Counted from the first letter of the stretch, positions 32,662-52,122 are shown. The stretch is DNA of 52,144 nucleotides from a virus (IMGVR_UViG_3300033146_001792:1-52144); one strand, 5' to 3'. Translations and numbers: made by a program. The notes: a model not told the origin generated them from the sequence alone.

Positions 32662-32686
32662 TATAAATATTCATATAATATTTATG
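32662..32686. promoter_or_regulatory. Divergent late promoters (TATAAATA on +, CATAAATA on -)
   Basis: TATAAATA at 32662-32669 faces gp4; a one-mismatch copy at 32679-32686 on the minus strand faces gp48. Confidence 0.7.
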
Positions 32687-46309: not shown

Positions 46310-46344
46310 AAAAAAGGGAGAGAGAATCTAATCCTCTCTCCCTT
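46310..46344 (-). terminator. Intrinsic terminator
   Basis: AAGGGAGAGAG/CTCTCTCCCTT 11-bp stem followed by a U-tract on the minus strand. Confidence 0.85.
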
Positions 46345-47785: not shown

Positions 47786-47793
47786 TATTTATA
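47786..47793 (-). promoter_or_regulatory. T4-type late promoter TATAAATA
   Basis: Exact motif upstream of 47741 (AGGAG RBS). Confidence 0.75.
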
Positions 47794-47799
47794 ACATCA

Positions 47800-48318
47800 C
47801 TACTTATCATCGACTACAATTTCTCCTGATTCTGGATTGTAGCCCCATTGTTTTCCTTTTAGGGATGTATGTTGTTTTGAAATGTCAAGTAAGAACTGTT
47901 TACTTTCATCTTTAAACTCTTCAGATGCTTTTGTATTCTGAATAGCATGGTATTCAACAATCATCATATCACGTTCAAGAGTTTCTTTTTTAGCATCCAA
48001 AAGAGCCTGTTGAGTTTTGATCAATTGAACCTTCATATCAATCATTTTTTTTTCTTTTTCAAACGCTTTATGCTTTTCAGCATTTAGATTGATACGAGCT
48101 AATTCATATTCAGTAAGAAAAATTCTACCTTCATCGGCTGGATCAGGTACAAATTCTTGTTGAAAAACATTTTCTTTTTCTACCCATCCATCTTTTGAAT
48201 CATCATACTCTATTTCTTTTTCTTTCATAGCTTCATCATATTCAGTTTCTTCAAGCATATAATCTTTATTTGTTATTTCATTTTCAGCCATGTGTTCTTC
48301 TCTACTTCCAGCAATCAT
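47800..48318 (-). CDS. Hypothetical acidic/coiled-coil protein (possible fibre chaperone)
   Basis: AGGAG RBS; heptad-rich centre. Confidence 0.65.
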   Translation of the reverse strand: MIAGSREEHMAENEITNKDYMLEETEYDEAMKEKEIEYDDSKDGWVEKENVFQQEFVPDPADEGRIFLTEYELARINLNAEKHKAFEKEKKMIDMKVQLIKTQQALLDAKKETLERDMMIVEYHAIQNTKASEEFKDESKQFLLDISKQHTSLKGKQWGYNPESGEIVVDDK

Positions 48319-48329
48319 AATTTCTCCTT

Positions 48330-48935
48330 TTAAATTAATGATAATCGTTTACATCTTCTTAATTCTGGATTGAAATATACCCGATTTTCGGATATAGCGA
48401 TCCCTAAAACCTGAAGATAATTTTCCATCATAACACTACTTGTAAATGAACCATTTTCACTTACAAAAATCTTTTTACCCCTTTCTAAAATTTCTGATAC
48501 ATTAAAAAAACCAGCATGAGAAACTTCAACTGTAGTAGCACTCAATACTTTAGTAACAATTCCTATTACTGGACTTTCTGTATCATTACTCGTTGCCTTG
48601 AAAACATATCTATTAATAGCAAGAGAAGGATATACCAAATCATCTACAACAAGTGTTCCATCACAATTATATATTTCTGTAAGCGAAGTATCACCACCAC
48701 CTGAAGGTGGACATATACATCCATCATCCAGTGTTACATCAATATGATCTTCAACAAGATCAATAGAAAATATATCCTCAACTAAATTGACATTGAGATT
48801 TTCTTCTACAATATCAACATCAATATGATCCTCTACTAATTTAGCATCAATATGATCCTCTACAATATCAAAAGATAGATCATCTTCAACTATATTGATC
48901 TGGATAATTATGTCTCCGATTGTCGTATAAGACAT
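48330..48935 (-). CDS. Structural protein with 9-residue VEDxID repeats and DUF2190-like C-terminus
   Basis: Six (I/L)VExxxxxx repeats; C-terminus resembles 44078-44668. Confidence 0.65.
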   Translation of the reverse strand: MSYTTIGDIIIQINIVEDDLSFDIVEDHIDAKLVEDHIDVDIVEENLNVNLVEDIFSIDLVEDHIDVTLDDGCICPPSGGGDTSLTEIYNCDGTLVVDDLVYPSLAINRYVFKATSNDTESPVIGIVTKVLSATTVEVSHAGFFNVSEILERGKKIFVSENGSFTSSVMMENYLQVLGIAISENRVYFNPELRRCKRLSLI

Positions 48936-48944
48936 TTTTTACCC

Positions 48945-49346
48945 TTATGATGTTTTAATTGTTACATCTTCAAGAACTTTGAATTTTCCTTCTACAAGTG
49001 TTTTAACAAGAGCAGGATTACCCGGATTTTGTGGATCATCTTGATCACCGACTACCTGTATATCATATACATATGATTTAATATTAAATAGCTCTGTATC
49101 AGTAGGAGGCATATAAATTTCAGCCTTATATCCTATTACTTCAGTACCATCAAGAACTTCTTCCACTAAATCAGAAGTCTGAAAAACGCACTGATTTTCT
49201 GGATCACCACATTCAATATCATCTTTAGCATTTTTCATGGTAAACCAAACCATTCCGTTATTTACCATAGACGCATTAGCGGAAAAGTTGACTGTAATTG
49301 TCTTACTATCCCCTCTATAAATCTCTAAATTTTTTTTATCTGCCAC
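48945..49346 (-). CDS. BppU-like Ig-fold structural protein
   Basis: GTG start with AGGAG RBS; IYRGDS...WFTMK...DT...YVYDIQ...TLVEGKF. Confidence 0.7.
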   Translation of the reverse strand: MADKKNLEIYRGDSKTITVNFSANASMVNNGMVWFTMKNAKDDIECGDPENQCVFQTSDLVEEVLDGTEVIGYKAEIYMPPTDTELFNIKSYVYDIQVVGDQDDPQNPGNPALVKTLVEGKFKVLEDVTIKTS

Positions 49347-49382
49347 AATAGTATCTCCTTATTATCAAGCGAATTATACTAT

Positions 49383-49390
49383 TATTTATA
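49383..49390 (-). promoter_or_regulatory. T4-type late promoter TATAAATA
   Basis: Exact motif upstream of 49346; overlaps the TAA of the ArfA-like ORF. Confidence 0.75.
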
Positions 49391-49556
49391 TGGCACAAAA
49401 AAAGGGCCGATCAAATGACCGCCCCTTGTGTTTATCTTTTCTTGTATAAGACCCTCGCCCTTTTTTTGGCTTCATGGCCCCGCCTTTTTTGGGAGTCGGT
49501 ATTCTCCCATACAATTGAGCAAAAGTCATTTTGCTCGTAATTTTTTTTATTTTCAT
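49386..49556 (-). CDS. ArfA-like alternative ribosome-rescue factor (56 aa; not in ORF track)
   Basis: GAGGTG RBS; own translation MKIKKITSKMTFAQLYGRIPTPKKGGAMKPKKGRGSYTRKDKHKGRSFDRPFFCAI contains KKGxGSYxRKxKH; terminator inside the ORF. Confidence 0.72.
   Translation of the reverse strand: MKIKKITSKMTFAQLYGRIPTPKKGGAMKPKKGRGSYTRKDKHKGRSFDRPFFCAI
49397..49427 (-). terminator. Intrinsic terminator inside the ArfA-like ORF
   Basis: AAGGGGCGGTCA-TT-TGATCGGCCC-TTTTTTT; U-tract ends 8 nt before the stop codon. Confidence 0.78.
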
Positions 49557-49571
49557 AAACACCTCTTAATT

Positions 49572-49645
49572 TGGCAGAGACGGCAGGAATCGAACCCGCA
49601 TCAAGAGGGTTGGAATCTCCTATGCTACCATTACACCACGCCCCT
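49572..49645 (-). tRNA. tRNA-Trp (CCA)
   Basis: AGGGGCG acceptor, TGGTGTAATGGTAGCA D-arm, anticodon loop TTCCAAC, GGTTCGATTCC T-arm, G73 and encoded CCA. Confidence 0.92.
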
Positions 49646-49649
49646 GTAT

Positions 49650-50270
49650 TTATTGAGTACAAACATCAAGTAATAATTCTATATTTGATCCAATCAAATT
49701 ATGTAAATACGCATCACTAACATTTGAAGAATAATCATTATAATCATCTATAAGAGCATGTGACAATTGTTTTGTAACACAATTAATAACGTTATTCATA
49801 TCAGATTCTATACTCATTTTCCACATATAATCATCATAATTATCTAATGAAATACTTGATAAATATTGTATAGCAAAATTATAAGACCAATCTCTTGATC
49901 TTACTTCAATTTTATATCTTTCATTTTCTAATTTTCTATCAAGATTTTGTTGTGTTGTTCTATTTATAGGTAAGGCAGGTGCATAACCACTAGAACTATT
50001 ACCAGATGGATTACCTTGATTTTTATTAGTCCATGCCCATAAAGGATATTTATGAGTAGTTTTAAATGTTGCGTATTCTTTACAAGTCATTGTTCTATAT
50101 TCACCTGTAACAGCTCTTAAACGCATTCCACCTTGACCACTATTACACTTATTATAATATCCTTGATAATTATAATTATTATCAGCAAAAGAATTATTTG
50201 GAATACTTATAATTACAAAAGAAAATATTAAAATTCCTATCAATATCAATATTTTATTCATAATTAACAA
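49650..50270 (-). CDS. Hypothetical secreted/membrane-anchored protein
   Basis: Hydrophobic N-terminal signal (NKILILIGILIFSFVII...SFA). Confidence 0.65.
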   Translation of the reverse strand: MLIMNKILILIGILIFSFVIISIPNNSFADNNYNYQGYYNKCNSGQGGMRLRAVTGEYRTMTCKEYATFKTTHKYPLWAWTNKNQGNPSGNSSSGYAPALPINRTTQQNLDRKLENERYKIEVRSRDWSYNFAIQYLSSISLDNYDDYMWKMSIESDMNNVINCVTKQLSHALIDDYNDYSSNVSDAYLHNLIGSNIELLLDVCTQ

Positions 50271-50485
50271 CCTTCAATTGTTGCTTTAACTTTTTTAGGA
50301 AGTTTAACCTTCACTTTTTGCCCAATTTCTATACCATCAATAACATCACATTCAAGAATAACCTGATTATGTGTCCCATCAGGTAAAATAGCACCATCAA
50401 CTCCAACCACTGTACATTTTAATGTAGAACCTGACGCTACAGAACCGATCAATAAAGCCATACAAACAACTATTGTTTTAAACAT
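50264..50485 (-). CDS. Small secreted protein
   Basis: AGGAG RBS; signal peptide; ends IEGC. Confidence 0.68.
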   Translation of the reverse strand: MFKTIVVCMALLIGSVASGSTLKCTVVGVDGAILPDGTHNQVILECDVIDGIEIGQKVKVKLPKKVKATIEGC

Positions 50486-50506
50486 AATTTCTCCTTTGTT
50501 AAATTG

Positions 50507-50578
50507 CAGAGGTGGTAGGAATCGAACCTACTCGTGCATGGGTCAAAGCCATGTGCTCTCCCACTGAGCTACACCCCT
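50507..50578 (-). tRNA. tRNA-Gln (TTG), CCA not encoded
   Basis: AGGGGTG/CACCTCT acceptor, TAGCTCAGTGGGAGAGC D-arm, CATGG-CTTTGAC-CCATG anticodon arm, GGTTCGATTCC; followed by G-CAA. Confidence 0.9.
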
Positions 50579-50747
50579 ATTTATTCCATTTACGGGCATT
50601 GCCAGCAAATGTAGCTTTTTTTACAATCTTTTTATCTTTTGACTTCTTACCTTTTTCAATACAATCAGTAGTAACAGAATCAAATCCTTGTTTCTTACAC
50701 CAATTTGTAAAAGTATTTATCTTTGATTTCTTTATTTCAATAGCCAT
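50577..50747 (-). CDS. Small basic hypothetical protein
   Basis: FTxWCK...KKAxFAxNARKW; likely start MAIEIK at 50747. Confidence 0.55.
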   Translation of the reverse strand: MAIEIKKSKINTFTNWCKKQGFDSVTTDCIEKGKKSKDKKIVKKATFAGNARKWNK

Positions 50748-52114: not shown

Positions 52115-52122
52115 TATTTATA
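52115..52122 (-). promoter_or_regulatory. T4-type late promoter TATAAATA
   Basis: Exact motif upstream of the lipoprotein gene. Confidence 0.7.

Follow-up and report, generated by a model that had tools for sequence, protein, structure and literature searches.

Can a phage encode its own factor for freeing ribosomes stalled on mRNAs without a stop codon, and can it tie the supply of that factor to the rescue capacity of its host? The question is raised by a small open reading frame (ORF) on the minus strand of the virus record IMGVR_UViG_3300033146_001792:1-52144, a stretch of 52,144 nucleotides (nt) that is referred to as the window and was analyzed at its full length. A sequence-only reading had described this ORF as a hidden ArfA-like ribosome-rescue gene with a terminator hairpin inside its coding region. 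The C-terminal half of the predicted 56-residue peptide (P0001) is homologous at the sequence level to the ribosome-binding module of ArfA (KKG(K/R)GSYxRKxKH), and the ORF is a predicted divergent phage ArfA lineage. The complete proposal, in which a phage ArfA is made from non-stop mRNA, gated by transfer-messenger RNA (tmRNA) and used to rescue ribosomes, is assigned a probability of roughly 0.6. It involves the following features:

49386..49556, minus strand: arfA-like ORF (P0001), 56 codons plus TAA, a predicted divergent ArfA-family peptide
49560..49565, minus strand: Shine-Dalgarno-like GAGGTG, 3 nt ahead of the ATG, read from the sequence
49572..49645, minus strand: tRNA-Trp (anticodon CCA, CCA end encoded), found by ARAGORN and by Rfam (tRNA, 51.9 bits, E 3e-10)
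49425..49475, minus strand: ArfA-like basic motif with KH, codons 28-44 (MKPKKGRGSYTRKDKHK), matched by PF03889, ArfA chains of the PDB and hhalign
49402..49427, minus strand: stem-loop directly after the KH codons (codons K44-F52), 10 pairs plus one G.G mismatch, 4-nt loop
49397..49403, minus strand: seven consecutive T spanning codons F52 and F53 plus base one of C54, where an intrinsic terminator would be expected to release the RNA

The ORF lies beside the tRNA-Trp gene, with GAGGTG ahead of it, as had been described; its ATG is at 49556 and its TAA at 49388-49386. The spacing of 15 nt from the CCA end of the tRNA, which had been given for the ribosome-binding site, applies to the ATG, whereas GAGGTG (49565-49560) already begins 6 nt past the CCA. 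The peptide opens with MKIKK...KPKKGRGSYTRKDKHKGRSFDRPFFCAI and ends in ...MKPKKGRGSYTRKDKHKGRSFDRPFFCAI. Two other frames were considered and rejected. A GTG start at 49562, two codons upstream, sits within the Shine-Dalgarno sequence and the homologues begin with MK, so that the ATG at 49556 is the better start; an alternative 76-codon frame (49662..49432) runs through the tRNA gene itself. The tRNA-Trp is the sole Rfam match in 49200-49900.

Membership in the ArfA family is indicated by several searches. The profile search that had been suggested as a check named ArfA and nothing else: PF03889 is the sole Pfam family found for P0001 at E <= 10 (E 8e-4, 19.2 bits), and residues 28-44 align in register with positions 28-44 of the 44-position profile. 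A phmmer search against all PDB chains returned six matches, every one of them ArfA (E 0.13-1.2), in which MKPKKGRGSYTRKDKHKGR of P0001 is paired with EKNKKGKGSYMRKGKHGNR of the ArfA chains. Matches in PHROGs are phrog_37108 (4.8e-5) and phrog_2701, both of which have no assigned function. The homologue search was exhaustive over 1.84 billion representative proteins (E <= 1e-3) and yielded 13 proteins, namely 11 small ones (45-113 residues), which retain both frame and motif, and two long Listeria-Bacteroides-repeat proteins, which match only residues 3-26 of P0001. In the 14-sequence alignment of P0001 and its relatives (A1), Y37, R39, and K42 do not vary, and G33, G35, and H43 hardly do. PF03889 is found at E <= 0.1 in 13 of these 14 sequences (best 6.7e-12), and the A1 profile finds only ArfA chains in the PDB (E 8e-4 to 2e-3).

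The alignment of the close phage clade (A2) was further compared by hhalign with 18 gammaproteobacterial ArfA sequences (A4), giving 96.2% probability and E 2e-9 over the C-terminal 25 columns only. This bears out both the ArfA-like motif and the remark that the N-terminus does not resemble that of Escherichia coli ArfA. The phage clade and ArfA are bridged by P0015, which combines a canonical PLFRQ-type N-terminus with a window-type FDRPFFC tail. Pairs of clade members share 23-30 identical residues up to the KH, of which 11-17 are specified by different codons; because so many identical residues use different codons, the frame is under protein-level constraint. An AlphaFold2 monomer model built on A1 is of low confidence (mean predicted local distance difference test score 67.5, predicted template modeling score 0.22, one short helix at residues 12-15) and suggests a disordered peptide. 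Taken together, the ORF is very probably a real ArfA-related gene.

The second part of the proposal concerns the message. A GC-rich hairpin followed by seven U had been placed at 49427-49397 inside the ORF, ending 8 nt before the TAA, and the coordinates are exactly these. The hairpin shows the sequence hallmarks of an intrinsic terminator (GC-rich stem, short loop, and T-run). It folds with -18.6 kcal/mol (z about -3.3 to -3.5), and only 1 of 200 shuffled sequences folds as well. A terminator consensus scan of 48800-50700 includes it among two sites, against 0.6 expected. In a scan of the complete window, three further terminator-like sites on the minus strand could be placed, each 5-33 nt past a stop codon, and the hairpin is the only placed one on this strand that falls within an ORF. 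It is thus likely, as far as sequence features go, that a functional terminator precedes the stop codon and yields non-stop mRNA.

One script was used to scan 83 sources, consisting of 18 viral loci (including L002), 64 metagenome loci, and the window. After 19 identical-DNA duplicates and three loci with the motif inside 1076-residue frames (L012, L069, and L076) were set aside, 61 distinct small-ORF sequences remained for assignment to terminator classes. A hairpin with a T-rich tail wholly ahead of the stop is present in five (window, L002, L020, L021, and L023), a hairpin overlapping the stop in another five (L026, L052, L063, L065, and L072), and no terminator-like hairpin in 51. The plain-stop phage loci were scanned for hairpins with a T-run. 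Conservation of both the motif and the pre-stop terminator, which had been proposed as a check, thus holds for all five members of the close clade with DNA and fails for 56 of the 61 ArfA-like ORFs. The loci with a pre-stop terminator coincide with the window's own clade (...GR[IL]P..K.G...K.KKG.GSY...), and the switch is a clade feature and not a family feature. A second viral scan with A2 gave no further clade member; it did yield L123, a 307-residue frame with the motif, and L124, a plain-stop ORF. The KKGKGSYxR motif is also seen embedded in large phage frames (L012, L069, and L076 with 1076 residues, L123 with 307).

Within the clade, of which five members have DNA available, the stem is retained at the level of RNA. 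It measures 11-14 bp and begins 0-3 nt past the KH motif in all five, with fold z-scores of -3.3, -6.5, -5.8, -6.6, and -5.4 (window, L002, L020, L021, and L023, in this order). The distance from KH to the stop is 39, 39, 87, 57, and 45 nt in the same loci, compared with 3-33 nt (median 15) in the other 56 sequences. Four of the five stems have the basal AAGGG/CCCTT pairs in common, and the upper stems vary in sequence with their pairing kept. The two arms encode G-R-S...D-R-P in the window, P0003, and P0004, G-Q-S...D-C-P in L002 and P0006, and G-W-S...D-H-P in L020 and L023. The residue pairs R/R, Q/C, and W/H therefore track the stem, as selection on the RNA stem, and not on the peptide, would predict. 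Covariation was judged from individual folds, as MAFFT misaligned the five hairpins. The PFF that follows is a read-out of the stem end and the T-run, and the peptide past the T-run varies in both sequence and length (CAI, I, YAI, NSINNSI, 20 residues in L020, and about 60 in P0004). The frames of L020 and L021 run past the T-run until a chance stop.

Several observations were made on the wider set of loci. tRNA genes are found at 15 of the 47 other ArfA-like loci scanned, several of them within arrays of 9-18; the small ORFs of L006, L007, L015, L019, L060, and L066 lie within such arrays. Some of these arrays hold suppressor-type tRNAs called Pyl(cta) or SeC(tca), which hint at recoded stops; if so, some of the stop positions given for these loci may be wrong. 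In Pseudomonas phage pf16 (NC_041881.1, L084 1453-1596, about 131,775-131,918 on the minus strand), an unannotated 47-codon ORF between annotated hypothetical genes has a canonical ArfA-type N-terminus and KKGKGSY, and its TGA stop lies within the 5′ arm of a 9-bp hairpin. A tblastn search of P0001 and of the L019 and L038 ORFs against the phage collection returned nothing, and since short lysine-rich queries of this kind are probably masked, this does not show absence.

In the proposed mechanism, the host RNA polymerase would transcribe a short unit (promoter, tRNA-Trp, and ORF) and terminate in the T-run near 49397 +/- 3. Most messages would then be stop-less and encode about 52-54 residues. 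The host tmRNA-SmpB would normally resolve the ribosomes that reach the message end and mark the peptide for degradation by tagging it; tmRNA gating probably follows from production on a non-stop mRNA. As with arfA and brfA, the factor would build up only in cells whose trans-translation is saturated or missing. Once freed, the peptide would bind other non-stop ribosomes through its basic tail and bring in a class-I release factor, upon which the peptidyl-tRNA would be hydrolyzed and the ribosomes returned to phage translation.

A number of findings weigh against this sequence of events. With regard to the family, the 19.2 bits of P0001 stay below the curated Pfam cut-off of 25.5 bits for PF03889, an NCBIfam scan of P0001 found no family, and the matching motif is short and lysine-rich. 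With regard to the switch, a pre-stop terminator is missing in 56 of the 61 distinct small ORFs. In addition, the close relatives P0002 (from a 569-bp contig) and P0008, both compared as proteins only, have a clade-type N-terminus yet end four residues past the KH, so the switch is dispensable in the family. The window stem, with its G.G mismatch and z of -3.3, is the weakest of the five, and read-through may extend to the TAA only 8 nt on. The mechanism further presumes a host with tmRNA-dependent tagging of the product and with a compatible RF2. Finally, the N-terminal 24 residues of P0001 do not align by hhalign with the part of ArfA that binds and activates RF2, and release-factor recruitment is left without sequence support because this half is not ArfA-like.

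The hairpin may be read differently while the gene is kept. In this alternative, P0001 is a real ArfA-like factor, and the hairpin is the ordinary terminator of the tRNA-Trp or early unit that happens to overlap the ORF end, the genome being compact; the factor would be translated from transcripts that include the TAA, arising late or by read-through, with no tmRNA gating. Such a layout would suit a TAA just 8 nt past the T-run, the plain stops of the 51 of 61 phage and metagenome ORFs without a terminator, the early ends of P0002 and P0008, and a window stem of only moderate strength. It does not account for a T-run that ends ahead of the stop in all five clade members though the stop wanders from +39 to +87, nor for a tail past the T-run that is unconserved while the stem is kept by compensating changes. 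The other terminator-like sites on the minus strand fall after stops, and this terminator could equally well sit 10 nt further downstream. Overlap by accident is accordingly considered unlikely, and the non-stop message is preferred.

The least secure step of the preferred mechanism is the release-factor partner, since the RF2-activating part of ArfA has no counterpart in P0001. The N-terminal consensus of the bacterial sequences in A4 (GRGxIxDN...ALVTSxxF) has no equivalent in A2, and the N-terminal half of P0001 reads KMTFAQLYGRIPTPKKGG. Residues 3-24 (49484-49550) resemble the opening strands of the Listeria-Bacteroides repeat (Flg_new, PF09479), and the two long repeat proteins match this half in nine and six stretches, respectively; the likeness could be due to chance or could point to the source of the replaced N-terminus. 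There also seems to be a second PKKG copy in the N-terminal half (TPKKGGAM / KPKKGRGS). A complex predicted from the clade alignment and Swiss-Prot RF2_ECOLI as a stand-in scored 0.00 without controls, which is evidence neither way. Release-factor-dependent rescue is given a slight preference.

The unrelated N-terminal half, with its resemblance to the start of a Listeria-Bacteroides repeat, speaks for a second alternative, in which the ArfA-type tail enters the mRNA channel without RF2 and either keeps tmRNA-SmpB out, inhibiting host trans-translation, or pairs with a phage GGQ hydrolase. The closest phage record (G001, 87% complete), which itself carries an ArfA-like gene, encodes a 120-residue protein that has an RF-1 domain and a GGQ motif but lacks a basic tail (L115 1480-1842, Pfam 36.4 bits, phrog_3122); by its domain content this is a stand-alone peptidyl-tRNA-hydrolase-like domain. 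Co-occurrence is weak, however. Ten further ArfA-like phage records hold no short GGQ protein, one full-length release factor, and neither in nine cases, four of which are rated 100% complete, so that over 11 records there is one short GGQ protein and one full-length release factor. The window, which represents 30% of its genome, has no GGQ protein, and a pure inhibitor would have no obvious need for a non-stop switch. This alternative is therefore held to be improbable. The release factor among the ten is a class-I homologue at L121 (record G003, the phage of L006), a 379-residue frame with an RF-1 domain of 146 bits, and G003 also has an ArfA-like ORF with 18 tRNA genes nearby.

A bolder version joins these elements and is offered as speculation of low probability. 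Here, the clade would not have borrowed arfA but would be a phage-made rescue module. Its new N-terminal half, a hairpin like that of the Listeria-Bacteroides repeat together with a doubled PKKG motif, would recruit a partner other than host RF2, for example the tail-less 120-residue GGQ hydrolase of the closest relative, which would amount to a split, ArfB-like, tmRNA-gated system in hosts without ArfA; small ArfA-like ORFs would be common, and for the most part unannotated, in phage tRNA and translation modules. That the ORF is untranslated, being merely a tRNA trailer with terminator and a chance lysine-rich match to ArfA, is very improbable: the ORF is short, its motif of low complexity, its Pfam score under the cut-off, and the 76-codon frame ends 4 nt ahead of the hairpin, but the 11 small homologues hold frame and motif with many synonymous differences, the Shine-Dalgarno sequence and ATG are well placed, and the 76-codon frame crosses the tRNA gene.

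Three further features belong to the surroundings of the gene:

49737..49766, minus strand: sigma-70-like promoter match TTGTCA-18 nt-TATAAT, 11/12 consensus positions, 92 nt upstream of tRNA-Trp
49383..49390, minus strand: TATAAATA, contains the TAA (49388-49386), with 37-44 nt to the next gene downstream
48945..49346, minus strand: downstream gene, 133 residues, phrog_1084 of unknown function, the first of the virion block

The promoter match is a candidate start of the short unit formed by tRNA-Trp, arfA-like ORF, and terminator. Promoter-like sites in the region number 10, against 10.7 in shuffled sequences, and the TTGTCA-TATAAT site is a consensus match only. The sequence TATAAATA at 49383..49390 matches the T4 late-promoter consensus. 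A ATAAATAATAG[TC]ATA stretch is also found 3′ of the terminator in L020, L021, and L023, and the position of the stop relative to it differs from locus to locus. This layout suggests a short unit of early type, made up of a promoter, tRNA-Trp, the small ORF, and a terminator, with a late promoter directly adjoining. Copies of TATAAATA also occur at 47786-47793, 2579-2586, 1005-1012, and 52115-52122 (minus) and at 32662-32669 (plus), and copies lie 27-52 nt upstream of several ORF starts in the window; their total in the window is not above chance (21 vs 15.3 expected, with 7 of 100 shuffles reaching 21). A 17-mer 3′ of the terminator was considered as a repeated element and dropped, with four window matches (<=3 mismatches) against 2.85 expected. 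At L002, a perfect 17-bp inverted repeat (2063-2107) overlaps a TTGACA-17-TATCAT promoter match directly ahead of the arfA-like gene of this related phage and may be an operator. Elsewhere in the window, a perfect 13-bp stem with T-runs on both strands (46315-46343) between the genes for 454- and 539-residue proteins resembles a bidirectional terminator.

The window comprises an entire IMG/VR virus record, whose completeness is rated at 30% and whose GC content is about 30%. It carries T4-type genes for a baseplate wedge, a baseplate hub, a tail sheath, and a gp32-like single-strand-binding protein, and structural genes are found downstream of the arfA-like ORF. The phage is T4-like, and its host is a bacterium. 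Among isolated phages, the best matches to the baseplate wedge protein reach no more than 31-37% identity, and the hosts of these phages (Pelagibacter, cyanobacteria, Pseudomonas, and Desulfovibrio) are unrelated to one another. A megablast search of 48300-50600 against the phage collection gave no match.

Two publications (PMC8953757, PMC12753301) have already annotated an ArfA domain in a phage gene, in one line each, which makes a phage-borne ArfA less unprecedented. A literature search of openly available full texts found no study of phage ArfA function or of a non-stop switch in a phage copy, and in the accessible part of Burroughs and Aravind 2019 (PMC6514570) the word "phage" does not occur. 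Three aspects appear to be new. The first is an apparently phage-only clade with a replaced N-terminal half, for which a pattern scan with A2 of 185,579 species genomes found no relative. The second is a predicted terminator-type switch that is conserved within this clade, and the third is how widely small ArfA-like ORFs occur unannotated in phage contigs, with 15 of the 47 scanned lying by or in tRNA arrays.

ArfA-type rescue has been described as a narrow back-up of Gammaproteobacteria and some Betaproteobacteria, and its module is found here in 61 distinct phage and metagenome small ORFs. One T4-like clade would keep a stop-less-mRNA switch, by which expression is tied to the condition of trans-translation in the host. 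If this is true, the phage gauges ribosome stalling in its host and replies with its own rescue factor. This bears on the upkeep of phage translation while host and phage RNases shred mRNA, on coping with RNA-targeting defense systems, and on small ORFs overlooked in phage annotation, such as that of pf16. Switched and plain-stop phage copies together provide a natural experiment on the purpose of the switch.

The phage gene can be compared with several known rescue systems. ArfB, the SmpB tail, and ArfT share the principle of a basic tail that probes the empty mRNA channel, according to PMC8012679 and PMC6514570. ArfB has its own GGQ domain, SmpB acts together with tmRNA, and ArfT belongs to a helix family that is unrelated; none of the three is matched by P0001 in the Pfam, NCBIfam, and PDB searches. 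The phage proteins Citromicrobium phage RXM gp10 (PMC8953757) and pelagiphage HTVC027P gp30 (PMC12753301) likewise carry ArfA domains, and the latter is described as highly expressed both early and late in infection. In these two reports, both proteins are one-line annotations without switch analysis or functional test.

Bacillus subtilis BrfA (YqkK) resembles the window gene in its message. As described in PMC8012679, brfA has a rho-independent terminator ahead of its stop, as predicted for P0001, and its truncated mRNA is under tmRNA control and repressed by trans-translation, the same outcome as for arfA. BrfA has a basic C-terminal tail containing KH, brings in RF2 by adding a beta-strand, and is regarded there as independent of ArfA in origin, whereas the C-terminal half of P0001 is detectably homologous to ArfA. 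A BrfA-type family was absent from the Pfam (E <= 10) and NCBIfam scans of P0001, in which the presence of a BrfA model was not checked.

ArfA itself (PF03889; E. coli ArfA/YhdL; PDB 5MDV, 5H5U, 5U4I, and 5MGP) has a reported range confined to Gammaproteobacteria, a few groups of Betaproteobacteria, and the B. subtilis group (PMC11633108), whereas P0001 is phage-borne. PMC8012679 states that the arfA stem-loop leads to premature termination or RNase III cleavage and that most ArfA comes from truncated mRNA and is repressed by trans-translation. According to the same source, the basic KH-bearing C-terminal part of ArfA occupies the 30S mRNA entry channel when this is empty; RF2 gains a beta-strand from residues Q27-E30 and is activated by the N-terminus (helix 15-24, A18). 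For comparison, 30 gammaproteobacterial arfA loci (L085-L114) were collected with P0015. Under the strict motif, the 20 distinct bacterial sequences show a terminator before or over the stop in none, after the stop in six, and none at all in 14. Seven loci failed this motif, and a looser motif with plain folding took in 25 distinct genes. In 22 of these, folds read by eye show a long hairpin whose apical portion holds the stop codon (-15.8 to -38 kcal/mol); L112 lacks a strong hairpin, and L105 and L109 follow the phage-clade design with a hairpin and T-run well ahead of the stop. The 5′ arm of the long hairpin, read in frame, accounts for the conserved ...ESYLIAA tails, and in Alteromonadales ArfA this tail ends in a tmRNA-tag-like hydrophobic ...IAA.

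P0001 differs from ArfA in the lack of any detectable likeness to the ArfA N-terminal part, in the apparent extra PKKGG copy ahead of PKKGRG, and in the use of a terminator-type hairpin in place of the long stop-holding hairpin of the 22 bacterial loci. There are likenesses as well. ArfA is likewise a small peptide (50-75 residues), its KKGKGSYxRKxKH module lies equally far from the N-terminus (28-44 in both), and its message loses the stop codon through an mRNA hairpin, in which the phage clade is alike at the level of sequence.

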